From Neocallimastix sp. 'constans' (lineage: Eukaryota): a DNA stretch of 64,000 nt. Position 1 is the stretch's first letter; each line of letters opens with the position of its first letter. Of the stretch, positions 5,779 through 60,664 are shown one piece after another. The position numbers and the translations under genes were made by a program. The stretch covers positions 372,001-436,000 of the forward strand of contig JBODTK010000133.1 of assembly GCA_050613775.1 (NCBI GenBank), read 5' to 3'. The notes beneath the pieces are model-generated. The model was given only the letters and a program-made list of their open reading frames with translations, was not told where the DNA came from and searched no databases.

Positions 5779-6086
5779 TCTATGGTTTGTCTTGTTGAGA
5801 TTTGAATAATATAGTAAAATAGGATAATATAATATTGGGTTTTGATAAGGTAACAAGTTGATTACTTCAGTATGGAATTAATAATAATAAAAATAAAATT
5901 TTATCCTAGCTCGAATTCCTCTTCGACCCACCTAGAAGATTTTAAAAAGAAATTTTAAACTAAGTTCGAATTCTTCTTCGACCCACTTAGATATGAATAT
6001 TTATTTCGTTTAACAGTTGAGCTCGAATTCCTTTTCGACCCACTCAACAGAACTTATTATTTGAATTATATTTATTTAGAAGCTTA

Positions 6087-6120
<34 letters not shown>

Positions 6121-6949
6121 TTAATAGAAATTAATTTAATATTGTTATTATCAAGTTGAACTACCGACCAAGTTATATATAATAAACTACTAACTTATGG
6201 GTCTTTCGTCCGATAATATTCATTCCGTCACCCTATTCACGTGATCTATGTTCCGTCACACGCTTCAGGATCTTAATATTACCCCTACTATCCCCCTCTT
6301 GACAGCTAGTAAGGCTTGTTTATGCTGATATAACTTGTTTAATTCAATCTTGATAAGAAAAGTATATTTCAATTATCAATATTAAATTAAAACAAATTTT
6401 AAATATAACTTAAAAGAATATAATTAAAAAAAAAATTTTTTTTTTTGTTTGTTTGTTTGTTTGTTTTATTATAAAAAAAAAGTATAATAAATTTAAAAAT
6501 ATACAAATTTACTAATATTACTAAAAATTTTATTTTATCTTTCTGCTTAACGGCATTTCCGGAAATTTTCCGTACTTATACCAAAACATAGGAAGTAGTA
6601 TGTAAGTTAGCCCAGCTCGCCTATTACGGCTTCATGTAGCACTTACACCGGGCGCTTCTGCTGTCAAACCAACAGAACGGCCAGAACCCAAGAATAGTTG
6701 TCACTACAACCTACCCTTGAGGATAACTAACCTGAAAACTTCCTAATTCTTGCGATTTGGCTAAGTACGCTTCTAAATCGTACTAAATCCAATAAGCAAG
6801 AAAGACAGGTTATAAAAATTCTAATAATATATAAAGGAAGTTTCACCGATAAAAAATTATCTATCACTTCCTATAATTTTAATAAATAAAAAAAAATGTT
6901 TTATAAGAAAGCTATTATTTTAATTTTATTTAAATTTTATCCTAACTTT

Positions 6950-6966
6950 CCCCGATATCTCCACCA
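6950..6966 (-). promoter_or_regulatory. E1 primer binding site (tRNA-Ala-like)
   Basis: TGGTGGAGATATCGGGG, 7 nt after the LTR end; complementary to a ...ATCTCCACCA tRNA 3' end typical of tRNA-Ala. The same PBS occurs in E4 and E6. Confidence 0.75.
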
Positions 6967-8712
6967 AATTTTATGGTTTGATTCGGGGTTTTTATAAAAA
7001 TTATTCAAAAATTATAAATAAAATTAAAACAATAATAAAAATAAAAATAAAAGATTAATATAAACAAAAAAAAAATAAATAAACAAGATAACTTTTTAAA
7101 ATTTTATTTTTATAATTCTTTTATTAAATTTTTTTTATTTGAAAATTATAATGTTAAAATTACCATATAAAAAAAATACAATTTTTTTTACTGTTATTTA
7201 TATTTTTTTTTTCTTAAAATAATAGAAATGGTAAAGCCATTTCTTTGTATAATAAAAATTAATTATTATTAATAATTTTTATATTATTTTTTTTTATTGT
7301 TAATATAATTATTATTTACTTATAATAAATACTGCTTATATATTAATCTATTACTAATTATTTATTTCTAATCTACTTAATTATATATTTTAAAAGACAA
7401 TTTTTTTATTTTACAGAAATTAATTCTGTGGTTTAGTAATATTTATTTAATCCTAAAGTTTAATTTTACTAAGTTTAGAAAAATAATATTATTTAAATTG
7501 TTAATATAAAATTTATAATCATTTCATCAAATTTATAATATAATATTTATAATAAAACATATAATAATAATATAACTATTTTCTTTTATGTTTAATTTTT
7601 TTTTTTTTTTTATTAGTAATTATTAATACAATTTTTAATCTGGAATTTTCCAAAGAAATAATTAATATTGATAAGTTTAATATTAATAAAAGAATTATTG
7701 ATAAGATTTTGATAAACTATTAAGAAAATTGATAAAATAAACTATATAATATTGATAAGGATTTTAATAATAATAAAATATAGATAAGAATAATAAAAGT
7801 AGTATAGATAAGGAATTAATATTAAATACATTTTTTTTAAATAGTATAATTTAATTTGTACTAATTAGGAATATAGATGAATTTATTAGAATATAGAAAG
7901 TTCCAAAAGAATAAAGAATCAAATAATTTATTTAAGGCTTAAATAAATCATTTAAGATGAATAACCAAAAGAACATTATTTGGGCATTCTTTATCAAAAA
8001 TGATATGGGCACAGATCACACACAATATTTTAAAAACACAATATTAAATATTATAAATAAATTTTTATTAGTTTAAAAATATTTTATAAATTTTTATTTT
8101 ATTTTATTGTCGTCCTTTTCAAAAGAAAGAAAATTTCTTCCTTTTATAGTTTTTTACATGAATCTTGAATTGAACATTAACATATACATTTATTTATTTT
8201 ATTCTATTATGAATGTTATTTTAATATTAATATATTTTAAAATTAACCTATTCTAAAGTATCTATTTTAAAATATAGTTGTATAATTATTAATGATTTAT
8301 TTATATTTAAAATTTTAACTATCTATTCTAATAATGTTTTAATTTATCAATTAATATATAATTTAATATTCTTGTAAATTATTAATATTATATTCTCATA
8401 AAGTTTATTATTGTAAAAAGAATACAGAAAATAATAATCTATTTAGGAGAAAACAATAAAAATAATAGTTAGTATTGTCAATCGATTTAATTTTATACAG
8501 AATTAAATATTTCTGTATTTATTTTATTAAAAACAATTTATAGATAATTATTTTTATTATAAATAATTTTATTATAAATAATTTTTTTTTTATAACTATT
8601 TTAATTTTAAATAATTTCATTATTATAAACATTTTATATTTTTTTCTTTTTATCATTCTTATATATACTTATTTGAGGTAAATAAGCTAGTTCCGGATCA
8701 GAATCTCCCCGT

Positions 8713-15594: not shown

Positions 15595-17270
15595 TGGTAG
15601 ACTCGGGGTGATTCTTATTGATTTAAAATCAAGCAGGGGGGACGGGTATTACCCTGCTTTGATTTTAACAAAGAAAAATTTTTTTTATTAAAAAAAATAT
15701 TTATTATTTATTAATATAAAATTTTATTTTTGAATTACACATATTTAATTTTAAGAAATAGTTACAATATTTATATTTTTTTATGAATTTAAAGTATAAT
15801 TATTTGTTTATAATTTAAGTAATTTTATAGAATTATTGAATTAATTTTATATCAATAATTCATTTTTGTTTTAATTTTTATAAATATAATAATATAATAT
15901 TCAAATATAATTTAATTAAAAATAATTATAAAATAAATATATAGAAAATAGTTTTTACTATTTTCTTTGATATTTTTAAGTTAAATAAATTGTTTTTAAA
16001 GATTAATATAATAAGTTTAATAATCTTTAATTATTTTAAATAATACTTGTAATTATTTTCAAAATAAAATAAAATTTTTATAATATTTAATTAATAAATT
16101 TGATATTATTTAAATAATAATTTTTATAATAAGTAATAATTTTTAATAATAATTTTTAATAATAAATTTAATTAATAATCTTAATAATTTTATAATAATA
16201 TTTAATAGTTATAATAAATAAATTTTTATAATAATATTTAATAATTTTAATAATTTTATAATATTAATAATTTATAATAATTTTTATAATAATATTTAAT
16301 TAATAATTTTAATAATTTTATAATAATTTTTATAATAATATTTAATTAATAGTTTTTAATAATTTAGTATTTTAAAAGTATAATTTTAATATTTACAATT
16401 GTATTTTAATATATACATATATTTAATAATATAACAATAAAGTAATTAATTAAAATTTATTTACATTATTTACAAGTTAAAATTAATTTATATCAAAATA
16501 AATTAAATTTTATTATTAAGTTTAGATTATCAAGAATATAGGAAAGTACAATTTAGTAATGTTAAAGTTTTAAGATAATTTGGTCTTAACGATTAGGTCA
16601 AGATGCCAAATTATAGTAATTAATTAATAATTAAATTTTATTCTTATTTAAAACATATTGTTATTAGTAAATTTTATAATTAAGTTTTTATCTAAAATAT
16701 AAATTTTATTTAATCTTAATAATATTTTATTACATTATTATTTTATATAATTATTACTATAATTTAAATTACAATAATCCTACAAAGGATTAATCAAAAG
16801 AATTTAAACATGTATTTATATAAAATAATTAATTATTAAAATATTAATTATTAATATGAATATGTAAATAATATTAATATAAGTTTGATATTGATAATAT
16901 AAAGTTAGATAATAATATAAATATTTAATATAAATAAAATATAAGAATTAAATATTGCTAAATATTATAATTTATAATTAAAATATAATATGTAGAAATT
17001 AATTTAATATGACAATCACGTGTTTACATTATTTAATATATATTAAATTCAATATGTTAATAATATTTAGTAATTAGTTGGCCTAGACTAATTCCTAAAT
17101 ATTTTAATAAAGTTAATTTAATAATAATTATTATATTATTATTTTTTATTAATATTGAAATTCAAATAACTGAATTATCGAAATTGAAATTGAATTGAAA
17201 TTCAGTTATTATCTTAACAAGTAAAGAATTATTAATAATAAAATAAAGGTTATTAATTCATTCTTTACCA
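15595..17270 (-). mobile_element. Solo LTR C copy 1, interrupted by a nested solo LTR
   Basis: TGGTA...TACCA termini, AAAA flanks, near-identical to 17275-18282 once the insert is removed. Confidence 0.85.
16560..17219 (-). mobile_element. Nested solo LTR, E0-related family, TSD AGTAA
   Basis: AGTAA at 16555-16559 and 17220-17224; reverse-complement homologue of 59141-59780. The empty site is visible in LTR C copy 2. Confidence 0.9.
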
Positions 17271-17274
17271 AAAA

Positions 17275-18282
17275 TGGTAGACTCGGGGTGATTCTTATTG
17301 ATTTAAAATCAAGCAGGGGGGACGGGTATTACCCTGCTTTGATTTTAACAAAGAAAAATTTTTTTTTTATTAAAAAAGTGTTTATTATTTATTAATATAA
17401 AATTTTATTATTTAAAGTACACATATTTAATTTTTAAGAAATTGTTACAATATTTATATTTTTTTATAAATTTAAAGTATAATTAATTGTTTATAATTTA
17501 AGTAATTTTATAGAATTATTGAATTAATTTTATATCAATAATTCATTTTTGTTTTAATTTTTATAAATATAATAATATAATATTCAAATATAATTTAATT
17601 AAAAATAATTATAAAATAAATATATAGAAAATAGTTTTTACTATTTTCTTTGATATTTTTAAGTTAAATAAATTGTTTTTAAAGATTAATATAATAAATT
17701 TAATAATCTTTAATTATTTTAAATAATATTTGTAATTATTTTCAAAAATAAAATAAAATTTTTATAATATTTAATTAATAAATTTGATAATATTTAAATA
17801 ATAATTTTTATAATAAGTAATAATTTTTAATAATAATTTTTAATAATAAATTTAATTAATAATCTTAATAATTTTATAATAATATTTAATAGTTATAATA
17901 AATAAATTTTTATAATAATATTTAATAATTTTAATAATTTTATAATATTAATAATTTATAATAATTTTTAGAATAATATTTAATTAATAATTTTAATAAT
18001 TTTATAATAATTTTTATAATAATACTTAATTAATAGTTTTAATAATTTAGTATCTTAAAAGTATAATTTTAATATTTACAATTGTATTTTAATATACATA
18101 TATTTAATAATATAACAATAAAATAATTAATTAAAATTTATTTACATTATTTACAGTTAAAATTAATTTATATCAAAATAAATTAAATTTTATTAAGTTT
18201 AGGTTATCAAGAATATAGGAAAGTACAATTTAGTAAAGAATTATTAATAATAAAATAAAGGTTATTAATTCATTCTTTACCA
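17275..18282 (-). mobile_element. Solo LTR C copy 2
   Basis: Direct repeat of copy 1 with AAAA on both sides. Confidence 0.85.
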
Positions 18283-18685
18283 AAAATGTTGCAGGATTTC
18301 GAATAATTTAAATTTTTATTTTCAAAAATAATATATTCTTAATAATTAGATTTTCTTTTTTTTTTATCTTTTATTAACTCTTAAATTTTTTATTAAGTAT
18401 TTTCTTTTTCTTTTATATATTTTTTACTACATGAATTTTATAATTATTTTAATTCTTTTTAGAATAATTATTACATGTGATTTTAATAATATTTTTTAAA
18501 AGTTATTTTAATAATAAAAATATTAATACTAATATAATATTATTTTTAATGACAAAATATTAATAATGATAAAATTAATAAATTTAACAATAAAATTATT
18601 GATAATATTTTCGATAATATAATTCTTAAAACATTTTAATATAAATAATAATTAAATATAATAATAAAACAATTTAATTAATATA

Positions 18686-19105
18686 AAATAATAATTATTT
18701 AATAATTAGTCATTAATCAATTTAATAAAATAATAATTATTTAATAATTAGTCATTAATCAATTTAATAAAATAATAATTATTTAATAATTAGTCATTAA
18801 TCAATTTAATAAAATAATAATTATTTAATAATTAGTCATTAATCAATTTAATAAAATAATAATTATTTAATAATTAGTCATTAATCAATTTAATAAAATA
18901 ATAATTATTTAATAATTAGTCATTAATCAATTTAATAAAATAATAATTATTTAATAATTAGTCATTAATCAATTTAATAAAATAATAATTATTTAATAAT
19001 TAGTCATTAATCAATTTAATAAAATAATAATTATTTAATAATTAGTCATTAATCAATTTAATAAAATAATAATTATTTAATAATTAGTCATTAATCAATT
19101 TTATA
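18686..19105. repeat. 42-bp tandem repeat, ~10 copies, in the E7 3' LTR
   Basis: Unit AAATAATAATTATTTAATAATTAGTCATTAATCAATTTAATA; GTCATT recurs every 42 bp. Confidence 0.95.
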
Positions 19106-19274
19106 AAATAATTTATGTAATTATTTTAAATTAAAAATAAAATTATGAAATTATAAAAATAGTTTAAATTAATTAACATATAAAGTTATTAAATTTAATT
19201 ATAATTTCGAATTGTATAATTGAAATCATTAGTTTATTGTATTTTGGCTAGTTCCGTAACATGACGCCCCCTTT

Positions 19275-19929
19275 TTAATTGGACTTCGTCCCAGAAGTTT
19301 CAATTTCGCATAATTTGTACGGAACTATATTTTTCAGATGCACATTTCTATTCGCAATTTCATTAGTGATGGGGTCGCATAAAGTTACTGTATTATATTG
19401 TTGCTTTACTATTCTTAGAGGTCCTACAAAGAAAGGTTCAAGTTTTTTCCTATTAATTGTTCTAATCAAAACTAGTTCTCCTGGTTTATATTCTGCTTTT
19501 AATCGCTTCATTTGGTTTCTTCTGTCTTCCCATAACTTATTGGCAGTTTGAATATTTTCTATAGCTTCTTTAATCCATAAGTGATGTCTAGTAAATTTCC
19601 TAATAAGATATTCTTCTTCACTCTCATATTCTTCTTTCTTGTCTAAATTGATAGTTAGCTCAAAGGGTTGGAAGTCTCGACTACCGTATAAAAGTTCGAA
19701 GCTGGAGAACTTAGTTGACTCATTTTTACAGGTTCTGAGGGCCCAAAGAGCACTAGGAAGTATTTCGTCCCATTTATGTGTATTATTATTGCATAATATC
19801 CTAAGGTATTTCCCAATCTCTTTATTTCTGTTTTCTACCATTCCATTTGATTCAGGATGATAAACAGAAATATATTTTACATAGACTCCATAAAGATCTA
19901 GGAAGGCTTTAGTTTTGTCTGAACGGAAT
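19275..19929 (-). pseudogene. pol: E7 integrase C-terminal fragment
   Basis: YHPESNGMVENRNKEIG...GPLRIVK; continuous with 53372-53409 across the E3 insertion. Confidence 0.9.
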
Positions 19930-20469
19930 TGTAACGGAGGTGCTTCTATTGTAAAGGCGGGATGAGATATAGAAACACAGAAAGGAGAAAACTCAATAGG
20001 TTTACACTATCTGTATAAATAATTCGTTTTATTAGAAATATTTTTTATTAATTATAAAATTTAAAATAATTATTAATATTAATCAACAAGGTAATATTTC
20101 GAATTACTTATACGTTAATTATTATTAATAAAAGCACGAAGAAAAATATTTTCATTCGTGAAGTTCGCACTATTTATACTTTTAACGGAAAAACAGTTTT
20201 AACATGTAAAAATAATTTTAAAGAAATATTTAGAAACATGTTTATAATAATTAATAATGTAAAGTTTCTAGAATATAGATTTTAATTGATGAAAATGAAT
20301 CTTATCAAAAAAAGAATAAAATAATTTATATAATAAGAATTTCTAAATTCATTTCGGTTAAATTACAAACCGAAAGAATCTTTAACTTTCTATAATTTTA
20401 TACAGAAAGAATATTCAAGAAGATATTATTAATAATTAATAAAATAATTAATAAAATAATTATTTATGC

Positions 20470-20546
20470 AAAATGGGTTGAGGTGTGAGTCGAACCCATG
20501 AAGTATTGGTCATGGTCAATGTAACTAACCATTGAACCAAGGTTCT
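20470..20546 (-). ncRNA. tRNA-like Pol III unit in the E3 3' LTR (no insertions upstream)
   Basis: A box TGGTTCAATGG and B box GGTTCGACTC at tRNA spacing, ending CCA-TTTT. The cloverleaf is degenerate. Confidence 0.6.
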
Positions 20547-20903
20547 AATTTTACTAACTGAAGATTTCGTTACATGGTCCGCCTCCAGGATTCGGATACC
20601 AGACGAATCTGACAGTTAGGCATAACTTATACTAAAATTAAGCAAACTAAACTAAACTAAACTAAATTAAAATAAAATAAAATATAATAAAATAAAAATA
20701 ATTAATTAACCATTTTATAGTACGAACTTTTTTTGAATAAAATTACATGATATTAATAAAGTTACATGAATATAATATATAATAAGAATACATGAATATT
20801 AATAATATTTAATAATATAAAATAATATTTAGTAATATTGATATTAATAAATTAATATAAGTTTGATATTAATAAAGTAAAGATTCATTTTCAAGTTTTA
20901 ATT

Positions 20904-23342
20904 TTAGTTATTTTTGTTAAATTCTTTTAAGAGTTTAGGGCAATTTAAATTTTCTTCGGGTTCCCAAGATGCTTCAGATAAAGGATAGCCTTTCCATTTA
21001 ATAAGATATTGGGTTTTGCCATAATGTTTTCTTTTATCAAGAATTTTTTCAACTTCGTATTCTTCTTCATTGTCAATAATTATCGGTGGTGGTGGTTCTT
21101 TCTTTCGTCCAAAGTGATCTTCATAAAATGGTTCAAGTTCAGAAACATGTATTACAGGATGGATTCTGATTTCTTTTGGTAAGTCTAACTTATATGAAAC
21201 GGGAGAAATTTTCTTAATGATTTTATATGGACCAAGTTTTCTAGGTTTAAGTTTTTTATTTCCATTATGAATTATAAGTGAACTATTAATCCACACTTTA
21301 TCACCAGGTTTAAAATTTGGAGCTTCAATACGATGTTTGTTTGCGAATTCTTCTTGCTTTTTTCTTGCTTGTTGTAAATTTCCATTAAGTGTTTTAAATA
21401 ATTCTGAAAGGTCTTTTGTAAATTCATCAGCTCTAGGAACATCTATACTGTTTGGAATTGATGGTGAATATCTTGGATTATATCCATAGTTTGCATAAAA
21501 AGGTGAGTGCTTAATTGATTTTTGAATTGAATTATTATAACTGAATTCTGCTAGGAATAAAAAATTATACCAATCAGAACCTTTAAAGTTTGAATAACAT
21601 CTTAAGTATTGTTCAATAACGGAGTTCACCCTCTCCGTTAAACCATTGGTTTGGTGATGGAAGGGAGAAGCAAGTTTCGTCGTGATATTGAAAGATTTAC
21701 AAATAGCTGACCAAAATTTTGAAGTGAATTGAGAATCTTTATCAGAAAAAAAATCGGAGGGTGGTTTATGAATACGAAAGAGATCATTTAGGTCTTTCTT
21801 GGGAACAAATGAAACAGAAGCAGCAGCTGGAGATTTAGATTTTCTAATAAATTTTTTGTCTTCATTTTCTTTAATATATTTCTTCGAAGCTAGAGGTTCT
21901 TTTACAGTTAAGGGGTAGATTGGGTCATAATGAAGTTTTTCATTTTGTTTGGGTTTAATCTCGCTATCAAAAGGACAATAAGGAGATGATTGAATAGTGT
22001 ATATTTCACTGAAAGTGTCTATAAATGGAAGTAATTTTTTTGGTAATGATTTGCTTATTTTATTATTGATTTCTTCATTTTCATTTTTGTCATTTTGTTT
22101 AGTAGTATTTAAAGGAACATAAGAGGTAAAGGAGTTAGGGATGATTAAACAATTTTCAACGCAATAATTGGAATTAAATCTTAAGACTTTATTTTTGAAG
22201 TCAATATCAGGATTGTGAGTAGAAATCCATTCGAAACCTAAAATAGCACAATAAGAAGGAAAGTCAACCACATAGAATTGAGTATTACATTTATGGTTAT
22301 TATAAGTGATGGAAATAGGAAGAGTTTTTCCAAGAATAGTTTGCTTTCCACCAATGCCAGATACCTTAGGGAAATTAGTTTTGGTTGAATACGGGATATG
22401 ATTTTCTTTAACATAGTAGATATCCATTAGATTAATTTGAGAACCAGTATCGAGAAGAATTTTAGCGGTAGAATTTGTATTATCAATACTCAAAGAAAAT
22501 TCGTAAATAGGAAGATTTGAGTCAGAAACTCTAGGTCTAGAAATGGGTTTTGATTCGGGATTAGAAACATAAGTGCTACTTGATGAAGGTTTATTTTTGT
22601 ATTTATTTTTAAGTGGACAATTGTCGAGAGAATGTTCAGAGGATCCACAATATAAACAAAGATTTTTTCCTCTTCTTCTTTCTTTTTCTTCTTGAGATAG
22701 AGGTCCATGAGGTTTGGATTTAAATTGCTTTTGGAAAAAGAATGATTTTTTGCCTTTTTTATTTTTATTATAATTACTATTATTTGAATTTTGACCTTGA
22801 AGATTGGAAAATTGTCTATGAGTAGAAATACGATTATCGATTCTAGATGCAATTGTTTGAATAGCAAAGAGGGTTTGAGGTCCAGGAAACATTTCTAAAA
22901 TTCTAGTAGCAATATGGTCATGTAGGCCGGCAAGAAAGGCGTCCATCTTGGCTTCTTCATTCCAAGAAGATTCATCGGCGTATTTATTAAATTCTAAAAT
23001 ATAATTTCTGACTTCACCAATTCGTTTTTGTTTGATTGTTCTTAATTTCTGGTTGGCAATAAAGGTAGAGTCGTAGCTTCCAAATACTGATTTTAGTCTA
23101 GCAATGAATTGATTATAATTAAGGAGACAAGGATCTTGGTTTTCAATGAGAGTAGCAGCCCAATTCATGGCGTTTCCATACAAACGAGAAATGATATAGA
23201 TTACTTTAGCTTCATCGTTTGCAAATCTTTCTGGTTGAATCATAAAAATAAGTTCCATTTTAGCTAGAAATCCTTTAAAGAATCGACGATCACCAGCAAA
23301 ACCGTCCTTAAAAGTAGGATTTTCTTGATAATAGTTGTCCAT
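20904..23342 (-). CDS. E3 Gag-protease fused in frame to partial integrase and chromodomain (RT/RNase H deleted)
   Basis: Gag with [14 protein letters not shown], protease LLDTGS, RT start ...[17 protein letters not shown] joined to integrase ...[12 protein letters not shown]...[11 protein letters not shown] motif, chromodomain YEVEKIL...YLIKWKGY...SWEP. Confidence 0.92.
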
Positions 23343-24067
23343 ATTAAAATAAATAAAGTAAAGTAGAATAAGTTTTCAAAGGTAAAGAATAGGCGGTAGA
23401 ATCCAGAAGTTCCCAAAGTGGCAGTAGAGATTCCAATAATCCAAAAGGTAGTAGATAGGTAGTAGAGATTCCAAAAGTTCAAAAGTTGTTTATTGGTAGG
23501 TTTCCAAGGTTAATGGATAAGAACACAAAATTTTAATAACACTTTATAATATTTTATAATTAAATATTTTTATTTTATAATTATTTATCAAAAATTACTG
23601 AAATATAAACTAGATTATATAGTATTGGACCAACTAAATATATAATCTATCAAAGTTTTATACGATAAGTTCCTTTAGCCTTTTAGTGATAACGCAGATA
23701 AAATCGATTGTTAATGTCTTATAGACAAAAGGAAGTAATATTGTTAGATTCTTTATTATGTCTAACTTATTGTTAGCTGAAAAGAATAAAACAAATTATT
23801 TTCCCCTATATCAATAGTATCTGAACACTAAAATGTTACGAAAACAGAGACCAACTTCTGTCGCTTTGGAAGTCGTATAAACCTTATATTTATATTTTAA
23901 TCTTTGTTTTCTTAATTATAAAATTATAATATTAATTATAAAATTATTGATTGATAAAATAGAATAGTACTATTGACTCACAACTATAGAAAAAACCGTC
24001 AGTACTATTATAACTAGTGCCGCGAGTAAGCACGAAATAAAATTTTAAAATACTATATAGTTTTAAT

Positions 24068-24253
24068 CATACGCCTTCGGTGACGTAAGCTCCTTATTCG
24101 CCAGAGTTGTTGCAAACCTAGAACCGTTTTCCTTTATAATAGGCTACGGTGCTCTCTTATAGAGTTTTACCTAGTCTAGAACCAAATCTATTCGTCGAGT
24201 GCAACACTAAAGAAGACAATTCTTCTAACTCTGTATATGAGCTCTATTCGCTC
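24068..24253 (-). ncRNA. Conserved structured RNA in the E3 leader (homologous to 46395-46620)
   Basis: 35-nt identical block, two further conserved blocks and covarying helices relative to the E6 leader. Confidence 0.65.
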
Positions 24254-24382
24254 GTATAAACGCTTTTTAAATAAATAAATAAAAAATAAAATGGCACAGG
24301 TTTTTCTTGCTATTATTTCAAGCAAGTAATTTATTAAAATAATTAAAAATAAAAATTATTATAATTATTAATATTATTATTA

Positions 24383-24425
<43 letters not shown>

Positions 24426-24665
24426 CTAAGCTAATTTAAAAAATTATTATTTTTGTTATAAATTAAATGAAAAATTTTTTTTTTTTTATCTAAAACTAAT
24501 TGATTTATTCACTAAATTAATCTAAAATATTTATCTAAAAATTAAAGATTTTTCTTACTAAATTAATTTAATATTATTTATCTAATTATAAATTAATTTT
24601 GTTGGTAAATATTTGAATTAATTTTAAAGGGTTAAGGTAATATAAGATTAATTTAATATTATCTA

Positions 24666-24706
<41 letters not shown>

Positions 24707-25180
24707 GTTAAGGTAATGTAAGTTTTATCTTAATAGGGTAGTACAAGTTTAATTTGAATTATATGATCGGGTAGTACAAGAATTTTTGTTATAAAAATTA
24801 ATTTCAACAACCATAGGATTAGGATTATCCGGTAATATAATAGATACAAAGGATTGAATTATATAATAGTGAGGGTAACTCAAAACGGACAAGGTGATAA
24901 TTTGAATAGGAATCAATAGGCAGTAATTATTCGTCTGGAAGGAGATAGAATCCGAGATTAAAAGATATAGAAGTCCGGTATTAAAGAGATAGTAGATAAG
25001 AAGATTTATTCAAAGATTATTAGACTAAGATAGAGAGAACCGGAGTAGGTATTTGTTCTTTAATAGTAAAATAGTAAAAGTAGAAACCCAACGATTGCCA
25101 AAAGATATTGAGAAGGTAGAATTCCTAAAGGTAGAATGTCTGTGGGATAGCGTAAAGGTATTGAGGGCTTGGATTAGCTG

Positions 25181-25191
25181 GTGCTTTTATT
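25181..25191 (-). promoter_or_regulatory. Self-priming PBS of E3
   Basis: No TGG tRNA PBS. AATAAAAGCAC is complementary to GTGCTTTTATT in the LTR (25398-25388), ~40 nt downstream of TATAAATA. Confidence 0.8.
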
Positions 25192-25730
25192 GTAACGGAG
25201 GTGCTTCTATTGTAAAGGCGGGATGAGATATAGAAACACAGAAAGGAGAAAACTCAATAGGTTTACACTATCTGTATAAATAATTCGTTTTATTAGAAAT
25301 ATTTTTTATTAATTATAAAATTTAAAATAATTATTAATATTAATCAACAAGGTAATATTTCGAATTACTTATACGTTAATTATTATTAATAAAAGCACGA
25401 AGAAAAATATTTTCATTCGTGAAGTTCGCACTATTTATACTTTTAACGGAAAAACAGTTTTAACATGTAAAAATAATTTTAAAGAAATATTTAGAAACAT
25501 GTTTATAATAATTAATAATGTAAAGTTTCTAGAATATAGATTTTAATTGATGAAAATGAATCTTATCAAAAAAAGAATAAAATAATTTATATAATAAGAA
25601 TTTCTAAATTCATTTCGGTTAAATTACAAACCGAAAGAATCTTTAACTTTCTATAATTTTATACAGAAAGAATATTCAAGAAGATATTATTAATAATTAA
25701 TAAAATAATTAATAAAATAATTATTTATGC

Positions 25731-25807
25731 AAAATGGGTTGAGGTGTGAGTCGAACCCATGAAGTATTGGTCATGATCAATGTAACTAACCATTGAACTA
25801 AGGTTCT
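25731..25807 (-). ncRNA. tRNA-like Pol III unit in the E3 5' LTR (anchor of the inner insertion stack)
   Basis: A box TAGTTCAATGG at 25800-25790, B box GGTTCGACTC at 25757-25748, TTTT at 25734-25731. Confidence 0.65.
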
Positions 25808-26544
25808 AATTTTACTAACTGATTGAAAAAGAACAAAACAATAATTATTAAATTGTAATAATTTTCATAATATATTACAAATATTCCAATTATAATTATT
25901 ATTGATTTCTTATTAAACTAAACTTTCCTATATTCTTCTTTCATGGAAATTCTAAAATATTGATAGTAAATATTATTATTTTTCTAAAAGTTTCTAAAAG
26001 ATTTCTATATTAAGAATCCCTTAAATAAATTCTATAAATTTTTAGAAAATTCTAAATAATTAAAATAAAAATATTGGTTGATTATTAAAATATATATATA
26101 TAAAAAAAAAAAAAAAAAAAATTTTTTTTAGAATAAATTAGTAATAAATATATTATATATTGTAATTATTATTACCAATTAAAAAAAAAAAAAAAAAAAA
26201 AAAATTTTTTTTTACTAATAAAATTTAAAATTATTAGTAATGACTTTCTAACGTTTTCGAAAAGATTTTATCATATTTATTCAATTATACTCTTAATAAA
26301 TATAAAATATATTGAATAATTATTAAAATCAATTTCAAAAATCCTAATTTTAATTCAAACTCTTTTTTTTTATTGAGGCTTTACAATTAAAAATAAAATT
26401 GAAAAAGTATAAATAGACCTATGTCTACTCAAAAAAAAAAAAAAGCAGAATCTTTCCTTAGATTATAATAAGATTACTAACAAAATTAAAATAATAAAAA
26501 TAAAATTAATAATAAGAATATTTTTAGTTAGTTTTAAATAGTTT

Positions 26545-26923: not shown

Positions 26924-27494
26924 ATCAAAATAAAGTGTATTTATTGTAATCCTTTTATTTCTTATATAACCGAACATTAGAAATGGTGGAGATATCGGGG
27001 ATATAAGAAATAAAAGTAAGGAAAGATAAATATTATAAAAAAAAAAAAAAAAAAAAAAAAGAAAAAAAGAAAATTTTTTTTTTGTTAATTATAACTATAA
27101 AAAAAAAAAAATATTAAAATTTTAGTTTATTAATTGTGATATATAAAATATAAAATTCTTATAATTACTATATATTTGCATATAGTATTTTCACAACGGT
27201 ATACTGAGTAGAGGTTGTGTAAAAATATAAAAATAATTAAATAAAAGAGAGTAGAATAGGGAAGTCTCTTGTAGAAGCGAGAGAGTAAAGGGTTTTAGAA
27301 TAAGATTATAAATTACCAGTAAGTTGGATATTGAAAAAGCCGTAAATTCCATGTTTCAATTGGTAGGCACAATAGAAAACTTTATTTATAATTGACGGTT
27401 CTAAGATCGAGGTTGAAAATCGTAGAGAGACGACCTGCGGGTTTCGAATATTTTATTTAATTATAATATATGCAAATGAAATAATAATAAATAA

Positions 27495-27535
<41 letters not shown>

Positions 27536-27792
27536 TATTTTTGATTCTTAGATATATAATTAGCAGTTGGGAATAACTGGATTATATATCTTTTATATTT
27601 CTTAATTTTAATTATAGACTGTCGAAAGAATTTCGAGTCTACTATAGGAGGAATAGACTGTCAAAAGGATTTTTGAGTCTAAAAATTAATTTATATTATA
27701 TTATAAAATCAATAATAATTACTCTATATAAAGAAAAAGAAAATTTTTTTATTAAGTTGGAATATTTATTAATACATTTTTTATTATCAAAG

Positions 27793-45030: not shown

Positions 45031-45799
45031 TTAAAATTTAAAATAAATTAGTATAAATAATAAATATTTCATTTTATTATTTTATTAGTTTTAACAATTA
45101 TTTTATTAATTTAAACAAAATTAATTATTAAATAAATAAAGATTAATATTAAAATAAAAATAAATTTTTTTTAATAAAACATTTTTGTGTTTAATAATAA
45201 AACATATTTATTTTTTTAAATTTCTTAAATCAATTTTATTCAGTATTTATCCTTTTATTCACTTCTACAAAATTTAATTTTTTGTAGATTAAGAATATTA
45301 GGTATAAATCACTGATGATAAGAATGTACTAAATAATGCATTCTTAATTAAATCTACGATTTATTTCTAATACATTATGTGTAGATTATTATTTTTGTAC
45401 TTTAATAAATTTTTAAATCCAAAGATCAAAAATTAAATCAAAAATTATATTAAACTTTATATTTTTATATTAAATCTTATATTAATAGTAATATTTTTAT
45501 ATATTTAAAACTTATATTAGCAATATTAATAATAAATCTTATTTTTTTTTTATATTAATAATGAAAATTTGTATTAATAATATTTTTATATATTGATAAT
45601 TAAAAATTTATATATTATATTTTAACTTTTATTATAAAATTTTATATCGAAATGTTTTATTTTATATTGAAAAATATTTTATTTTATTAAAAACCTTTAT
45701 ATTAGAATAGTATTTTTATTTTTATTTGAATATTTTAACAGATTGTAATAAAATTTATAGCCAATTAAATAAATTCTTATTAGTAATATTTTAGATATT

Positions 45800-45847
<48 letters not shown>

Positions 45848-45938
45848 TTTTATTAATATTATAAATGTATTTTATTTATATTGTTATAATTAAATTTTAT
45901 ATGATTGATTATAAAATTCAATTTAAATTTAATAGTTT

Positions 45939-45974
<36 letters not shown>

Positions 45975-46394
45975 AATAAAATGTAATTTAGTGGCAAGAA
46001 CAACTTTTATGCCTTGAAAAAAAGTATAAATAGTTGTAAATTTTGCTACTAATTTTTAAAATATCATCAAAAAAAAAAAAAATAAATTTAATAAAATAAA
46101 TAAATAAAATAAATAAATAAATAAAATCTGTGTTTCTTACTTTATTTTTATTTAATTCTCTAAAACCTTAACATTTATATGGTGGAGATATCGGGGAATT
46201 AAATAGAAATAATAGTAAATAACATAGATTTTTTTTTAATTTTTTTTTATTTTATATTGATAAACAAGTAAGTCGTTAATCCTTTGATTAACCTATGGCG
46301 CTTGTTTGATATATATATAAAAAAAATTTTTTTTTAAATAAGTAAAATTAAGATTCAAAAAAAAAAAAAAAAAATTTTGTAAAATTATAACAAG

Positions 46395-46620
46395 GAGCGG
46401 ATAGAGCTCATACACAGTGTATTCTCAGATAGCAACAAATTAACTCTATTCATAGTAGGTTATTGAATAGTAGTTAATTTGGAGATTAATTGGAAAGAAG
46501 ACGAAGGTATTTGGTTACCGACCCGGTAATAATAGTTCAGCCTTCAACGTTTCAACACACGAAGGTGCGGGTACTTTCCAAGCACTGGCGAATAAGGAGC
46601 TTACGTCACCGAAGGCGTAA
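46395..46620 (+). ncRNA. Conserved structured RNA in the E6 leader (homologous to 24068-24253)
   Basis: 35-nt identical block, two further conserved blocks and covarying helices relative to the E3 leader. Confidence 0.65.
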
Positions 46621-47606
46621 GATTGTTTTTTTTATATATATTTTTTTTACTTTTCTTTGTGCTAGTTATAAGGCACTTTATTATATAAAGTATCAGACTT
46701 TGTCTAACTTCGCCATTTAAATTTTTTTTATTTTTTTTTATTACTGATACTTTATTTGTTTAATAATTCCTGTAAAAGAATCTTAATTTACTTTGAAAAT
46801 ATTGTGTTTTTAGTTAATTTTTATTAGTTAATAAAAATATTATTGAATACTTTTAAAATTTTTTTTATTCCGTACATAGATTATCGGATTAAGTTTATCC
46901 TACATAGTAATTGGGCTAGTGGGCTCTGAACTGCTATATTTTATATTGAATATAGTAATCGTGGCACACGCGTGGCATGACACCATTAGGTAAGCTGCAC
47001 GTCAGACAGTGTGTACTATCAGATTGTACGACAATAAAGATTATTTTTTTGTATTTAATAATTATAATTAATTAATAATTTTATTAGCTATAACAATACA
47101 ATATTTATCGTTTAAAAAGAAAAATTTTTGAAAGGTGAAAATAATAAATAAAACTTTGCTTCTAAATTTATTACTACAAATATACTAAATTACAAAATTC
47201 AAGTGGTCGATAAAGATTTCGAGCTTGAAAAATATTCTATTGAGTTGTCGATAAAGATTTCGAACTTAAAAATTATTCTATTGAGTTGTCGATAAAGATT
47301 TCGAACTTAAAAATTATTCTATTGAGTTGTCGATAAAGATTTCGAACTTAAAAATTATTCTTAATAAAGTAGTCGAAAAGAACCTCGTGCTTTATAATTT
47401 CTACTAAGTTGTCGATAAAGATTTCGAGCTTATATCTACTAAAGAAAGCAAATAAAATTATTATTTTCAAAAGTTACTAAAATATATTGTTTTAAAAATT
47501 GATTCGATATTAAATTACCTATTAAATTATATTTTTAAAGTTGTATTTCCAAATTTATTCTTATTTAATCACCTCACTAATATACAACAAGAAATATTTA
47601 AACAAA

Positions 47607-48492
47607 ATGTCCAAGGAAACAACTTTGAGCTTTAAAGAATTGAAAAAAGAATTAAGAGATATTGTGAAACTTAGCAAGGACAATTTAGATATTAAGTCCT
47701 GGGCTACTGAATTAAAACTTTGGATCAAGATACAAGGTATCACAGATCCAGAAACAATATTTAATGCTTGTTTACTTACCAGCTCTGGTGAAGTACAACG
47801 CGTTATTGAAGATTTGGGAGAAGATAGTGATGATGAAAGTGATGATTCATCAGATGAAGAAGAAGAAGATGATGAAGAAGAAAATGTTGATGATTTTTTT
47901 TTCAAGTCTTGAAAATTTTTACGGTATTAAAGAAGACCAAAATTTACTTCTTAAAGAACTTCGTGCAATGCGAATTAAAAGAAACGAAAAGATTAAAGAC
48001 TTTAATGTAAGATATAGAACTTTGTACACTAAACTTGATAAAAAGAGAAGAAAGCGCATTGGTGTACTAGATTATATTGATTCTATTCAAAATAATTATG
48101 AAGCCTGGAAGAAATTATCCCTTAAAGATGATATAAGTATGGAGAAAGCTTTCAAAATTGCCGAGAAAGTAGATAGACTTTCTGTAAGGAACAATAATAT
48201 TAATACCTATAATGTTAATAATTCCCAGCATAATCAAAATAATCAAAACAGTACTACTTCAAGACTTTATCCTAAAAGAAGAAACGAAACTTTCCAAACA
48301 AGTCAAACAAATAATAAACTGAAACCTCAAGATATTATAGAAGAATCAACCCAGAAAATGAGAAATTTATCTGTTAAAACTTGCTTCTTCTGTAAGGAAG
48401 AAGGTCATTACTCATACTATTGCCCTCAATTAAATAAGATTATGGAAAAAAATAAAAAAGAAATATATTCCAAAAAGTCTTTAAACTTCTAA
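47607..48492 (+). pseudogene. gag: E6 Gag, frameshifted at a poly-T run near 47900
   Basis: Two partial ORFs together match E1/E4 Gag; CFFCKEEGHYSYYC. Confidence 0.88.
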
Positions 48493-51400
48493 ATGGGAGC
48501 AGAAGCACTCCCAATGACAAAACAATAGCTTCATTAAATAATTTACAAAATAATACTTTTACTAAGAATACTCCAATTGATAATAATTCCTTTAATGAAG
48601 AATCTGAAGAATCTGATTTTAGTGACACAACTGAAAGTGAGGATGATATCATTATAAATGCTATAAAAAGAAAAATGAATGATAATAAGAGCGAAAAAGA
48701 AGAAAATAATTCCAAGAAAGTACATAAAAGTTTAAAAGATAATCCACGTCCTTTCGCAACTCCTGCTTTAAGAAATAAGAAAGAAAATGAGCTACATAAT
48801 AAACCAAATAAAGTTTATAAAAATCAAATACTTCCTTCAATTTTAACTCAACCAAATATTAACAAAGAAAAACAAAAAGAAAAGGAATTAAGAAATATAA
48901 CAAGAGTAAGAGAAAGTAAAGAAGAAAACAACAATTATTCATCAAAAGGAAAGGAAAAAGTTGAATCTGAAGATATACTTGTAATCGATAATGAAATAGA
49001 AGATCTAGAAATGAATAAAGATAATCAACAAAATAAAACTAATACTTTGGAAAAATTAATTTCAACAAAAACTAAAGAAACTAATAATGAAAATACTCAG
49101 TTAGTAAAAAGGAATATCAAAATGATGAATAATAAAGAACCTTACAATATTATGGATGATTTAAATAATCTTAAATCCAGTATTACGATAGGTCAACTCT
49201 TGAATGCATGTCCGAAAATTCGTTCACAATTAACTCAAGGTTTAAAGTTAGAAAAGTCTAAAATAATTGGAACTGTAGACAATGTAATAGCACGAACTTT
49301 ATTAGTAAATAACTATGATCATAGCTACATAAGTAAAAGTAATGAAGTAGCCGAAGAAGACTTAGCAATGGTTGATGCAAGTGTTGACGGAGTACTAGGA
49401 AAACTTTTAATTGATTCTTGTAGTAACCTAAGCATCGTTACTAAGCAGTATTTTGATAAATTACCTGGTGAATATGAAACAGTTGGAAAAAGTCGTGGAA
49501 GAATCCAACTAGCAACACAAGATGAAGAATACTCGGAAGGAATTATTGTTCGATTACCAGTAAAAATTAATAATTATGAATTTAATGCGGACATTAGAAT
49601 TATTGAGAAAGAAGACTCTTTTTATGATATGTTACTAAATTTTAAAACTCAAATCGATCATTGTTTATTTATTCATCCGACCTTAAACAGTTTATGTAAA
49701 CTTTTGTCAGAAAGTGAATACGAAGAAATAGCTAAAATAAATAATCAATATTATGATGAAGAAAGTATAATTTGCACTATTAGAAAAGTTAAAGAAACGA
49801 ATAATGAAAAGGAAATTATAAAGGAATTAACTCCAATGGAATTTATTGAGAGTGATGAATTTTTTAGTACCTTAAATAAAGATTATAAAGAACAAATTAT
49901 TAAAATTCTCAAAGAAATGATTGACATAGTTGCCACTTCAACAGAAGAACTAACTCCTTCTAAACTTTCACCACATAAGATCCGTTTAAAAGCTAATGCA
50001 AAGCCAGTAAAATTAAGAAGTTATAGGTTAACTAAATTAAAATCAGATATCTTAAAAGAAGAACTTACAAAACTTATTAAGAAAGGATTGATAGAACCAT
50101 CCTGTTCAGAATGGTCATCTCCAGTAGTACTTATTCTAAAACACAATGGAAAGTGGCGCTTGTGCATTGACTACCGAAAAGTCAATGATATGACAGAAAA
50201 AGATTCTTATTCAGTTCCATATATAGATGAAATTTTTGATAGTCTCGGAGGAGCTAAAATATTTACAACTCTTGATTTATTTTCTGGTTTTCACCAAATC
50301 TTAATGGATGAAGAAAGCGTTGAAGTAACCACTTTCACTACTAAGTTTGGAAATTATCAATTTAAGGTTATGCCTTTTGGACTTACTGGAGCTCCTTCAA
50401 CCTTCAAAAGAGAAATGAATAAAATTTTATTCCCTTTTATTGGTGAATTTGTTTATGTATTTATTGATGATGTTTTGATCTATTCAAAAAATATCGAAGA
50501 ACATTTAATTCATATTAAACAAGTATTAGAAGTATTTAAAGAAAACAAGTTAAAAATTAATATTGAAAAGTGCCATTTTCTTCAAACTGAAGTTGATGTA
50601 TTAGGTCACAAACTTACTACTAAAGGATTAAGTCCTATGGAAAGTAAAATAACAGCTATTAAGAAGTGGGAAGCCCCTTCATCAATTCATGAATTAAGAT
50701 CATTTCTAGGAGCAATAGGGTATTATCGTGACTTTATCCCTAAATATGCTCAAATTACCTCACCTTTATGTAAATTATTGAAAAAGAATACCAAATATGA
50801 ATGGAATAAAGAACAACAAGAAAGCTTTGAACTCCTAAAAGAAAAATTAATCAATGCACCTATTCTAAAATTTCCGTCATTTGACAAACCTTTTATCATT
50901 AGAACTGATGCTTCGTATAATGGAATTGGTGGAGTTCTTTTACAAAAAGAAGAAGAAACCGGTAAGGAGCATCCAATACACTTTATAAGTAGAAGTTTAA
51001 AGAAAGCTGAAAAGAATTATGGTATTACCGATTTGGAAGGAACCGCTTTGTTTTACTGTATGACTAAATTTAAATCTTATATTGAAGGAAATCCACTACC
51101 TACAACTATTTACACAGATCATAAACCATTAGTTGGTTTATTTAAGAATAAAGAACCTTTGAATGCAAGGCAAACAAGATGGTGTCTAACCGCTAGTATG
51201 CTTGGAATTAATATAAAATATGAATCAGGCAAAAAGAATGTGTTAGCTGATGCTCTTTCAAGAATGAAAAGTAAGGAAGAGAGAAAGATATTATTAACAA
51301 AAATTACTAATGGAAATAATGAAGAATTATTATCTAAAGTTATAAAGGAATTTATTAATGAAAAGTTTACTGTTATTGATGGTGAAGATTACTTTATCGA

Positions 51401-52477
51401 CAATGGAAATTATAGAAAATTAATAACGGACGAAAATGAAAGGTTTAAATTAATTTTAGAAGCTCATAATATTGGCCACGAAGGATATTACAAAACATAT
51501 CAAAGACTTAAGAAAAACTTTTATTGGAATCATATGATTAAAGATATCAAAAGAATTGTTAGTAATTGTGAAAAATGCCAATTAAATCGTCCTCAACCAT
51601 ATCCAGAACCAACCGAAAACCATCCAACTAAAGTGGAGGGTCCCTTTGTGCATTTAGGATTAGATATTATAGGACAGTTACCAAAAACAAGAAATAATAA
51701 TCAATATATTATAGTAACTGTTGATTACTTTACCAAATGGGTTGAAGCCGAACCCACTGAAAACATAACTTCTTCTGATATAATTAAATTTTTAATAAAC
51801 GTTTTTGCAAGACATGGTGTACCTCAAGTTATTACTACTTATAATGGAGTCCAATTCACTTCTGATATGACTAAAATCTTTCTTGATCTTTATGATGTAT
51901 ATGTTAAATTTGTAGCTACTTACCACCCTGAATCAAATGGCCTTACTGAAAATCGAAATAAAGAAATTGGAAAATTACTCCGTTTATTAGGAAGGAAAAA
52001 TCAAGATTGGGATGAAGTTTTACCTTCTGCTTTATGGGCACTTCGAACTACCAAAAATACAGCTACTGGACATTCTAGTTTTGAATTAGTATATGGAAGA
52101 GAAGACCAACAGCCGTATGATATAGCCATAAGAACAATTGAAAATGCAGGTAAATCATATGATGAAATTTTAATGGAAAAATTTGTTCGTCATTATCAAT
52201 GGACTAGAGAAGCATGCGAAAATGTGAAGAATGCTAACAAGTATTGGGCAACAAGACGAGAAGAACAAATAAGTATGAAAAAAGGAAAAGAATTAAAGGC
52301 TGGTGATCTTGTTCTTGTTAGAAACTTTAGCCGCACTAAGCTAGAACCATATTACAATGGACCATTTAAAATTTTAAAATTCAATTCAACACAGCAACCC
52401 TAATCGATCAGAAGACTGGAAAGCAACTCGATAGGAATGTTCACTTTAAAAATTTAGTAAAGTTTAACTCCGCTTAA
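48480..52477 (+). pseudogene. pol: E6 Pol with mutated integrase catalytic Asp and a C-terminal frameshift
   Basis: All domains present. TTYNG replaces TTDNG; frameshift near 52380 relative to the E8 copy. Confidence 0.9.
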
Positions 52478-52991
52478 AGAGAAGCTTGAGTCTTCGTCGG
52501 GGCATCTTGATAAGAATGTACTAAATAATGCATTCTTAATTAAATCTACGATTTATTTCTAATACATTATGTGTACATTATTATTTTTGTACTTTAATAA
52601 ATTTTTAAATCCAAAGATCAAAAATTAAATCAAAAATTATATTAAACTTTATATTTTTATATTAAATCTTATATTAATAGTAATATTTTTATATATTTAA
52701 AACTTATATTAGCAATATTAATAATAAATCTTATTTTTTTTTTATATTAATAATGAAAATTTGTATTAATAATATTTTTATATATTGATAATTAAAAATT
52801 TATATATTATATTTTAACTTTTATTATAAAATTTTATATCGAAATGTTTTATTTTATATTGAAAAATATTTTATTTTATTAAAAACCTTTATATTAGAAT
52901 AGTATTTTTATTTTTATTTGAATATTTTAACAGATTGTAATAAAATTTATAGCCAATTAAATAAATTCTTATTAGTAATATTTTAGATATT

Positions 52992-53034
<43 letters not shown>

Positions 53035-53409
53035 TTTTATTAATATTATAAATGTATTTTATTTATATTGTTATAATTAAATTTTATATGATTGATTATA
53101 AAATTCAATTTAAATTTAATAGTTTTTATAAAAAAAAAAAAAAAAAAAAAAAAAATAAATAAAATGTAATTTAGTGGCAAGAACAACTTTTATGCCTTGA
53201 AAAAAAGTATAAATAGTTGTAAATTTTGCTACTAATTTTTAAAATATCATCAAAAAAAAAAAATAAATTTAATAAAATAAATAAATAAAATAAATAAATA
53301 AATAAAATCTGTGTTTCTTACTTTATTTTTATTTAATTCTCTAAAACCTTAACACTGAAGATTTCGTTACAGGAATTGAGGACCATTGTCTGTTATTAAA
53401 ATTTCTGGT

Positions 53410-58189: not shown

Positions 58190-58736
58190 TTTCTACTCTT
58201 CTCTTTTCGCTTTTTTTTTTTAAAAAATTTTTTTTTTTTAAAACAATTAATTATTTTTAACTCAATATTTTATTTTTAATTATTAATTTTCATATTATTT
58301 TTGATTGAGTCCTGCATAGCTCGCCAAATGTTGCAGGATTTCGAATAATTTAAATTTTTATTTTCAAAAATAATATATTCTTAATAATTAGATTTTCTTT
58401 TTTTTTTATCTTTTATTAACTCTTAAATTTTTTATTAAGTTTTTTCTTTTTCTTTTATATTTTTTTTTTTTACTACATGAATTTTATAATTATTTTAATT
58501 CTTATTAGAATTAATTATTACATGTGATTTTAATAATATTTTTTAAAAGTTATTTTAATAATAAAAATAATAATATTAATATAATTAATATTATTTTTAA
58601 TGACAAAATATTAATAATGATAAAATTAATAAATTTAACAATAAAATTATTGATAATATTTTCGATAATATAATTCTTAAAACAATTTAATATAAATAAT
58701 AATTAAATATAATAATAAATCAATTTAATTAATATA

Positions 58737-59030: not shown

Positions 59031-59140
59031 TGGTAATTTATATAATTATTTTAAATTAAAAATAAAATTATGAAATTATAAAAATAGTTTAAATTAATTA
59101 ACATATAAAGTTATTAAATTTAATTATAATTTCGAATTGT

Positions 59141-60300: not shown

Positions 60301-60304
60301 AAAA

Positions 60305-60626: not shown

Positions 60627-60664
<38 letters not shown>

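Follow-up and report, generated by a model that had tools for sequence, protein, structure and literature searches.

Two unrelated retrotransposons carry the same leader domain

The DNA analysed here (64,000 nt of Neocallimastix sp. 'constans', positions 372,001 to 436,000 of contig JBODTK010000133.1; hereafter the window) is a nest of Ty3/gypsy long terminal repeat (LTR) retrotransposons with a GC content of 9-33%. Two of these elements, E3 and E6, carry a folded RNA domain of 185-230 nt on the sense strand of their untranslated leaders. Coordinates are window positions, with the strand in brackets.

E3 lies at 19928-25822 (-) between LTRs at 19928-20561 and 25189-25822 that are 99.7% identical. 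Its single intact open reading frame (ORF) of 812 aa, 23342-20904 (-), encodes Gag, a CCHC knuckle, a protease (DTG) and the first residues of reverse transcriptase (RT), fused in frame to the end of the integrase core, SH3 and a chromodomain; it lacks RT, RNase H and the integrase core. Judged by its sequence, E3 is a young, internally deleted, non-autonomous derivative of a chromovirus. At the end of its 5' LTR, ATAAAAGCAC (25181-25190 (-)) is the perfect 10-nt reverse complement of GTGCTTTTAT at LTR position 425-434 (25398-25389), which is the arrangement of Tf1-type self-priming.

E6 lies at 45316-53354 (+), with LTRs at 45316-46173 and 52508-53354 (98.6% identical) and a flanking CTGA duplication. 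Its gag begins at ~47607 and is frame-shifted in this copy, being split over two overlapping frames (47526-47912 and 47716-48492 (+)) by mutation or a programmed frameshift; pol (48675-52403) lacks a chromodomain. A second E6 copy at 60302-64000 (-) is cut by the window end. E6 has a tRNA-type primer-binding site (PBS), TGGTGGAGATATCGGGGAAT, at 46180-46199 (+). Sites like it come after the LTRs of E2, E4 and E5, and none was found at E3. The same PBS occurs in L001, a relative of E6 from a metagenome contig that is ~80-88% identical to it over leader and gag and supplies a third copy of the domain.

A preliminary description of the locus had taken E3 for a self-priming chromovirus and E6 for a tRNA-primed element outside the chromoviruses; the chromodomain and 10-nt complement of the former, and the PBS and missing chromodomain of the latter, bear this out. 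It had also held that the domain is common to two otherwise unrelated lineages. Indeed, no similarity was detected between the E3 and E6 Gags beyond the CCHC knuckle, and the C-terminal parts of their integrases are 26% identical. A protein-atlas look-up of the E6 Gag returned generic retrotransposon Gag clusters only. The idea that E3 is a parasite of E6 is weakened by the differing priming sites and LTR ends.

The domain copies span 24070-24253 (-) in E3 (184 nt, 151.8 bits) and 46395-46621 (+) in E6 (~227 nt, 285.5 bits). Both are sense-oriented, lie 3' of the 5' LTR and 5' of gag, and stand out as GC islands: GC is 0.41 in each copy against 0.10-0.24 in the flanks (0.10 and 0.24 for E3, 0.16 and 0.19 for E6). 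Three sequence blocks, first noticed in the preliminary description and confirmed here at its coordinates, are shared. Block 1, GAGCGRATAGAGCTCATAYACAG, is a 23-nt 5' tail (24231-24253 (-) and 46395-46417 (+)) with two transitions between E3 and E6; it contains the invariant palindrome GAGCTC and might form a GAGC/GCTC hairpin. Block 2, GACGAA-NNN-ATTTGGTT, was placed by fuzzy search at 24196-24180 (-) and 46500-46516 (+). It extends colinearly to GACGAA-NNN-ATTTGGTT-NNN-GAC-NN-GGTAA (in RNA letters GACGAA-NNN-AUUUGGUU-NNN-GAC-NN-GGUAA), which occupies 24167-24196 (-) and 46500-46529 (+) and forms a large asymmetric internal loop; within it, TTTGGT (24186-24181 and 46510-46515) is a predicted pseudoknot strand. 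Block 3 (24070-24104 (-) and 46585-46619 (+)) is identical at 35/35 positions. It includes the 3' hairpin (24087-24070 and 46600-46621) with the loop ACCGAA (24081-24076 and 46608-46613); compared with E6, three stem pairs of this hairpin covary in L001. The motif GCGAAUA(A)G-GAGCU is present twice in the domain.

In dinucleotide shuffles, two matches to blocks 1 and 3 were found in 0/100 cases. Outside the domain the E3 and E6 leaders share one 9-mer, in agreement with the little similarity reported before. The blocks are identical or nearly so between E3 and E6, and helix Pb, hairpin H1 and the distal domain (described below) are wholly different. Fuzzy searches and a covariance-model search with filters off detected just these two copies in the window, and the model did not find a further one in L001 either. 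Scores are 285, 280 and 152 bits for the three known copies and 14.7 bits for the match ranking after them. By the same searches, five other window elements, including the E6 relative E1, are without the domain, as expected of an accessory module. An ORF check found no start-codon ORF inside or beside it. That the domain was exchanged between the lineages is a reasonable inference.

Compensatory changes support a fold on the sense strand

The domain is an RNA fold under selection. The E6 and L001 copies differ by 22 substitutions, 16 of which make up eight compensated base pairs, five of them belonging to hairpin H1 and three to the 3' hairpin; of the rest, one makes a C-G pair U-G and five lie outside pairs, and no substitution disrupts pairing. 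The covariation first seen between E3 and E6 is thus met again in an additional homologue. Between E3 and E6, five other pairs, located in helices Pa, Pb and Pc, differ on both sides. Over the alignment of three sequences from two lineages, on which the covariation rests, there are 59 pairs, 95.4% of cells are paired, and 13 pairs are changed on both sides. Shuffles reached this result in 0/500 cases, and slides of 1-3 columns left 0-2 double changes and 37-47% pairing. In the distal domain, this alignment puts one helix of E3 out of register; the helix scores 73%. The G-U pairs place the structure on the sense strand. The preliminary description had proposed a functional RNA module: the selected sense-strand fold is upheld by the compensatory changes and G-U pairs, and the roles offered for it (ribozyme, internal ribosome entry site (IRES), packaging or stability element) are no more than candidates. 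Scans of metagenomes, genome contigs and viral contigs gave no homologue beyond L001.

The fold begins with the block 1 tail and helix Pa, followed by a three-way junction with the variable hairpin H1 and helix Pb. After Pb come the ~20-nt conserved internal loop of block 2, helix Pc with a variable distal hairpin, and a conserved 3' part that consists of the single strand GCGAAUAAGGAGCU and the 3' hairpin. The junction strands between Pa, H1 and Pb are 1-2 nt, UUAR and 0 nt, and the minimum free energy (MFE) of the domain is -45 and -65 kcal/mol. Pa pairs CAGTGT (46415-46420 (+)) with GCACTG (46582-46587) in E6 and CAGAGT (24233-24228 (-)) with ACTCTG (24107-24102) in E3, one pair being changed on both sides and one on one side. 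Pb pairs TTGGAAAG (46490-46497 (+)) with CTTTCCAA (46574-46581) in E6, and TGTTGCA (24206-24200 (-)) with TGCAACA (24114-24108) in E3. Both helices had been described before as differing in sequence and still pairing, and both hold at the checked coordinates. Pc is a third covarying helix, added here: ACCCG (46521-46525 (+)) pairs with CGGGT (46568-46572) in E6 and CTAG (24174-24171 (-)) with CTAG (24121-24118) in E3, in the same alignment columns and with two pairs changed on both sides. H1 is 63 nt long in E6 (46423-46485 (+)), where its five pairs compensated relative to L001 lie, and only 16 nt in E3 (24226-24211 (-)).

Predicted long-range contacts

Three long-range pairings had been proposed on the basis of the two window copies. 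One of them, GACG/CGTC, is refuted by L001, which retains GACGAA but has TAGC in the hairpin stem. The other two are possible: a UUUGGU:ACCGAA pseudoknot (predicted duplex -5.4 kcal/mol) and a GAGCUC:GAGCUU pairing (predicted duplex -6.7 kcal/mol), both invariant in the three sequences. GAGCUC being palindromic, the GCUC of block 1 has two alternative partners, the GAGC of block 1 itself and that of block 3. The MFE folds put half of the invariant GAGCUC into a 4-bp stem, and pairing with the GAGCUU of block 3 is a further possibility.

A 7-nt complement of GACGAA+N of block 2 is found 16 nt upstream of the 3' LTR of E6 (52492-52498 (+)), and its E3 counterpart lies 40 nt upstream of the 3' LTR (20608-20602 (-)). 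The seventh base covaries between E6 and E3, and E1, the E6 relative without the domain, has CTTTGTG at this place. RNAduplex runs of block 2 against the region before the 3' LTR revealed no specificity (-30.3 and -15.2 for cognate, -27.7 and -21.2 for crossed combinations).

The leaders are depleted of ATG

The leaders of E3 (23343-25188 (-)) and E6 (46174-47606 (+)) are 1.4-2 kb long and almost without ATG. We gauged the depletion by comparing the ATG count with the counts of the five other orderings of A, T and G in the same segment. Between the domain end and the gag ATG, E6 has 1 ATG versus 10-18 (46620-47606 (+), 987 nt), E3 has 0 versus 6-13 (23343-24069 (-), 727 nt) and L001 has 2 versus 7-16 (934 nt). 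In E3 the 935 nt from the LTR end to the domain contain 1 ATG versus 5-13. No depletion is seen over the whole LTRs (10 versus 7-12 in the 858 nt of E6; 7 versus 6-10 in the 634 nt of E3); the ATG-poor zone begins inside each LTR, at position ~695 in E6 and ~407 in E3. As in E3 this zone begins beside the self-priming complement, the transcript of E3 likely starts near LTR position 425.

Since the leaders are almost free of ATG, ribosomes probably reach gag by scanning 1.6-2 kb from the cap, through the domain. The freedom from ATG on both sides of the E3 domain speaks against constitutive self-cleavage and against a need for internal entry. The depletion, found in the long leaders of several window elements and not in their LTRs, suggests that these elements commonly rely on ribosomes scanning over very long distances. 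A comparable case is rice tungro bacilliform virus (RTBV), in which leaky scanning over 900 nt is aided by the absence of AUG (PMC5902531). The likeness lies in the purging of AUG over ~1 kb 5' of a translated ORF; however, the AUG-free stretch of RTBV is coding (ORFs I and II), whereas here it is a non-coding leader with a structured island.

The E1 leader (5857-7295 (-)) has 6 ATG versus 14-26 and the E4 leader (26978-27672 (+)) 4 versus 7-16. GC-rich islands in the leaders of both elements are unrelated in sequence to the domain; those of E1 (6540-6870 (-) and 6190-6320 (-)) reach up to 50% GC per 100-nt window. In the E6 lineage a hairpin, AAACAAG...CTTGTTT, stands between PBS and domain (46266-46310 (+); ~355-405 in L001), and its outer stem has one compensated change in L001 (AAATAAG...CTTATTT). 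A second GC-richer island of the E6 leader (46916-47015 (+)) is 96% identical to L001 versus 83-88% around it and may be another conserved leader element.

Occurrence in sequencing libraries

The E6 leader is present in DNA runs of three organisms, in sheep-gut and animal-faeces metagenomes, and in six metatranscriptome libraries from six studies. The sheep-gut and faecal occurrence, the GC content of 9-33% and chromovirus domains of fungal type all fit an anaerobic gut fungus as host. With 17,207 contigs of one DNA run (X1) matching the leader, the E6 family must be very abundant there. Metatranscriptome contigs cover the domain in 2 of 3 libraries (46388-46608 in X16, 46388-46624 in X17) and continue into the leader; being assembled contigs, they cannot show RNA levels or RNA ends, such as the 5'-truncated RNAs that an exoribonuclease-resistant RNA (xrRNA) would leave by stalling Xrn1 at its 5' border, and the RNA libraries may contain carried-over DNA. 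No GT..AG joint was found in the leader contigs, which is not proof that splicing is absent. In X17, a loose end and a joint place block 3 before a different flank, with the same ends around another centre or none, so that at least one further context of the domain exists.

Two further comparisons were not used. Contig depth is higher over the domain than over the downstream leader (403 versus 134 in X16; 68 versus 15-46 in X17; peak at 46614-46668), although the depth of contigs is no basis for ranking the parts of a gene, and these contigs end where sequence is common to several families. Among the variant sites listed for X1, 2/40 fall in the 225-nt domain and 38/40 in the other 1181 nt (Fisher P 0.076), a difference too weak to build on.

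Comparison with known RNA families

The domain is an RNA family new to Rfam 15, of a known general kind: it would act like the portable cis elements of retroviruses and RNA viruses (packaging domains, IRES modules, transport elements), without the defining features of any one kind that was checked. The preliminary description had not recognised the family, and a scan of the whole window with the 4227 models of Rfam 15 gave 0 matches at the gathering threshold; at E<=10 only chance-level matches to bacterial sRNA, CRISPR and lncRNA models appeared, far below the thresholds. In the literature we found no description of this RNA, nor of structured cis elements of LTR retrotransposons in very AT-rich gut eukaryotes. 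By-eye comparison with consensus motifs fitted none of the following: kink-turn, Sm site, loop E, tRNA-like structure, ENE and H/ACA.

Hammerhead ribozymes have a three-way junction with conserved CUGANGA and GAAA strands. The domain lacks this core: CUGANGA is absent, the junction strands are those given above, and there is no Rfam match. In hepatitis delta virus (HDV)-like ribozymes, P2 of the nested double pseudoknot is made by a 3' end that folds back; the 3' end of the domain is a self-contained, independently covarying hairpin unlike this fold, and again there is no Rfam match.

HCV-like IRESs in picornaviruses are a case of modular exchange, and the intergenic IRES of dicistroviruses is compact, pseudoknotted and ~190 nt long. 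The domain resembles them in its compact junction, its (here predicted) pseudoknot, its invariant loops and its presence in unrelated genomes, a sharing that host machinery as the common reader would explain. It differs in that the gag ATG is 727 nt (E3) or 987 nt (E6) away with no abutting ORF, where a viral-type IRES has its start codon right at its 3' border or a short scan beyond it, in that the leader upstream of it is ATG-poor, and in that the Rfam IRES models remain unmatched. Retroelements also carry control elements that bind host factors, such as the constitutive transport element (CTE) of Mason-Pfizer monkey virus, the RNA transport element (RTE) of intracisternal A-particles and the 5' post-transcriptional control element (PCE). 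Like the domain, these are portable cis elements of ~150-230 nt that are optional within a retroelement group, and the twice-occurring GCGAAUA(A)G-GAGCU recalls the two repeated loops of the CTE. However, they are vertebrate, mostly located near the 3' end, and show no sequence likeness to the domain.

Leader packaging and dimerisation domains include the packaging signal (Psi) and dimerisation initiation site (DIS) of HIV-1, the Psi of Moloney murine leukaemia virus and the PAL sequences of Ty1. The domain shares with these a structured nature, a short palindrome, alternative pairings and a position between PBS and gag on the genomic RNA: in E6 the PBS (46180-46199) is followed by the domain (46395-46621) and the gag ATG (~47607), and in E3 the LTR end (25189) by the domain (24253-24070) and the gag ATG (23342). 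It departs from them in that one set of blocks serves unrelated Gags and different priming; its palindrome lies half inside a stem in the MFE folds.

Ribozymes are a further kind of module carried by retroelements; R2 has an HDV-like one. An HDV-like ribozyme is also reported in L1Tc (PMC3185411), and hammerheads are reported in Penelope-like elements (PMC4209133). The likeness extends to conserved junction nucleotides, variable helices and unrelated carriers; the defining cores are absent here, and cleavage in the scanned leader of an LTR element would be costly.

Interpretation of the domain

Because the blocks are kept and the helices have drifted between elements whose Gags and priming differ, the domain would have a common reader, either host machinery or the RNA's own chemistry. 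We tentatively suggest, with a probability of roughly 0.35, that a host factor docks onto it in cis and thereby controls what becomes of the full-length RNA, translation in the first place. The invariant purine-rich single strands and the predicted UUUGGU:ACCGAA pseudoknot would form a tertiary surface with one and the same reader for E3 and E6; since their Gags are unrelated, this reader is most probably host machinery. Our preferred candidate would be a translation initiation or scanning factor (the 40S subunit, an initiation factor or a helicase), which would help or gate the passage of ribosomes along the 1.4-2 kb leader, and factors of export or stability are another option of this class. 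That ATG is purged to either side of the E3 domain suggests that ribosomes travel along intact, uncleaved RNA, which would put the domain in the path of translation and make a constitutive ribozyme and a separate transcript less likely. The domain may have spread between lineages by RT template switching between co-packaged RNAs.

Several points weigh against docking of a host factor. The assignment of function rests on exclusion and position. At 727-987 nt from the gag ATG, the domain is far beyond any known distance from an IRES to its AUG, and the scarcity of ATG on its 5' side in E3 implies that ribosomes scan from the cap in the ordinary way, for which an entry site is unneeded; a fold as stable as this one would be an obstacle to scanning, not an aid. 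The 3' hairpin stem varies in L001 and yet is identical in the co-resident E3 and E6, which fits recent exchange or co-packaging better than a host factor. The unrelated GC-rich leader islands of E1 and E4 would fit lineage-specific packaging signals. With three sequences from two lineages, the 'invariant' blocks are over-counted, and the RNA libraries may contain DNA.

Some of these points lead to the strongest alternative, a possible although doubtful one, in which the domain is a packaging and/or dimerisation (Psi/DIS-like) domain of the genomic RNA. The GAGCUC palindrome or a reciprocal UUUGGU:ACCGAA contact between hairpin loop and internal loop would then link two RNAs, the blocks would be read during encapsidation, and sharing of the domain would let the RNAs of both lineages be co-packaged, which would also explain its transfer. 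The classical position between PBS and gag on the sense strand fits, and the invariant 6-nt palindrome of block 1, with competing partners in blocks 1 and 3, has the look of a monomer/dimer switch, although the MFE folds put the palindrome half inside a stem and not in a loop. Most telling is the 3' hairpin stem, which is the same in E3 and E6 and changed at 3/4 inner pairs in L001: its identity in the co-resident elements suggests recent exchange by template switching between co-packaged RNAs. On the other hand, the central parts of the E3 and E6 domains differ completely, so the E3 copy is not recent. Lacking RT, RNase H and the integrase core, E3 must enter the particles of another element; however, it keeps its own Gag and a self-priming site unlike the tRNA site of E6, which makes a chromovirus a more likely helper than E6. 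Other lineages' leaders carry structured islands of their own, and packaging signals are exposed on the structured leaders of pararetroviruses (PMC5902531). The main difficulty is that a packaging signal normally co-evolves with Gag, whereas the Gags of E3 and E6 are unrelated; those of cauliflower mosaic virus and RTBV cannot stand in for each other (PMC5902531).

It is considerably less probable that the domain is a new self-cleaving or branching ribozyme that processes the leader where the conserved region sharply begins (5') or ends (3'). Nucleotides are conserved in junctions and loops with variable helices, conservation sets in sharply at GAGCG, and such modules are reported in unrelated retroelements (PMC3185411, PMC4209133). 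However, no Rfam ribozyme family matches even at E<=10, there is no hammerhead core, and the self-contained 3' hairpin is unlike HDV-type folds. A cut between PBS and gag would separate the replication signals from the coding part; the depletion upstream of the E3 domain (1 ATG versus 5-13) suggests that uncleaved RNA is the translated form, and RNA-library contigs cross the 5' edge of the domain. The least probable explanation, to which we give hardly any weight, is an independent small RNA gene (an ncRNA captured from the host or a hitch-hiking Pol III unit) transcribed separately within the leader: A-run AT-rich tracts upstream, T runs after the 3' hairpin and the loose ends and one joint that put block 3 in at least one further context would suit it, but T runs are ubiquitous in DNA of 10-25% GC, the domain is always sense-oriented within a leader, a 682-nt RNA-library contig spans block 3, T runs and leader, and no snRNA, signal recognition particle, RNase P/MRP, 5S or tRNA model of Rfam 15 matches.

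A more far-reaching version, which we hold to be unlikely, is that the domain represents a new class of large functional RNA, either a new ribozyme or a recruiter of ribosomes or initiation factors that acts on a start codon ~1 kb downstream, and a portable cassette that unrelated LTR retrotransposons in anaerobic gut fungi acquire from one another by horizontal transfer. Outside yeast and animals, little is known about structured cis elements in such retrotransposons. Blocks that stay identical across unrelated Gags and different priming would speak for a self-contained, portable function, and the domain offers an experimentally tractable handle on how retrotransposons use their host. Combined with leaders of 1.4-2 kb that are purged of ATG, it leads to a testable picture in which gag is translated by very long-range scanning. 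A compact and portable RNA module could also serve expression work in organisms with few genetic tools.

Other features of the window

LTR elements of the window abut end to end at distances of 0-4 bp (E1/E2 at 7997/8001, E3/E4 at 25822/25823, E4/E5 at 33940/33942, and E5 and a solo LTR at 40968/40973). This suggests that integration is aimed at the termini of resident elements. An ORF at 19275-19841, which has no Pfam match, lies beside one of several tandem arrays with 42-bp and 46-bp units (18493-19128 and 58544-59053; 16056-16401 and 17694-18085). The 42-bp array recurs 40 kb apart.

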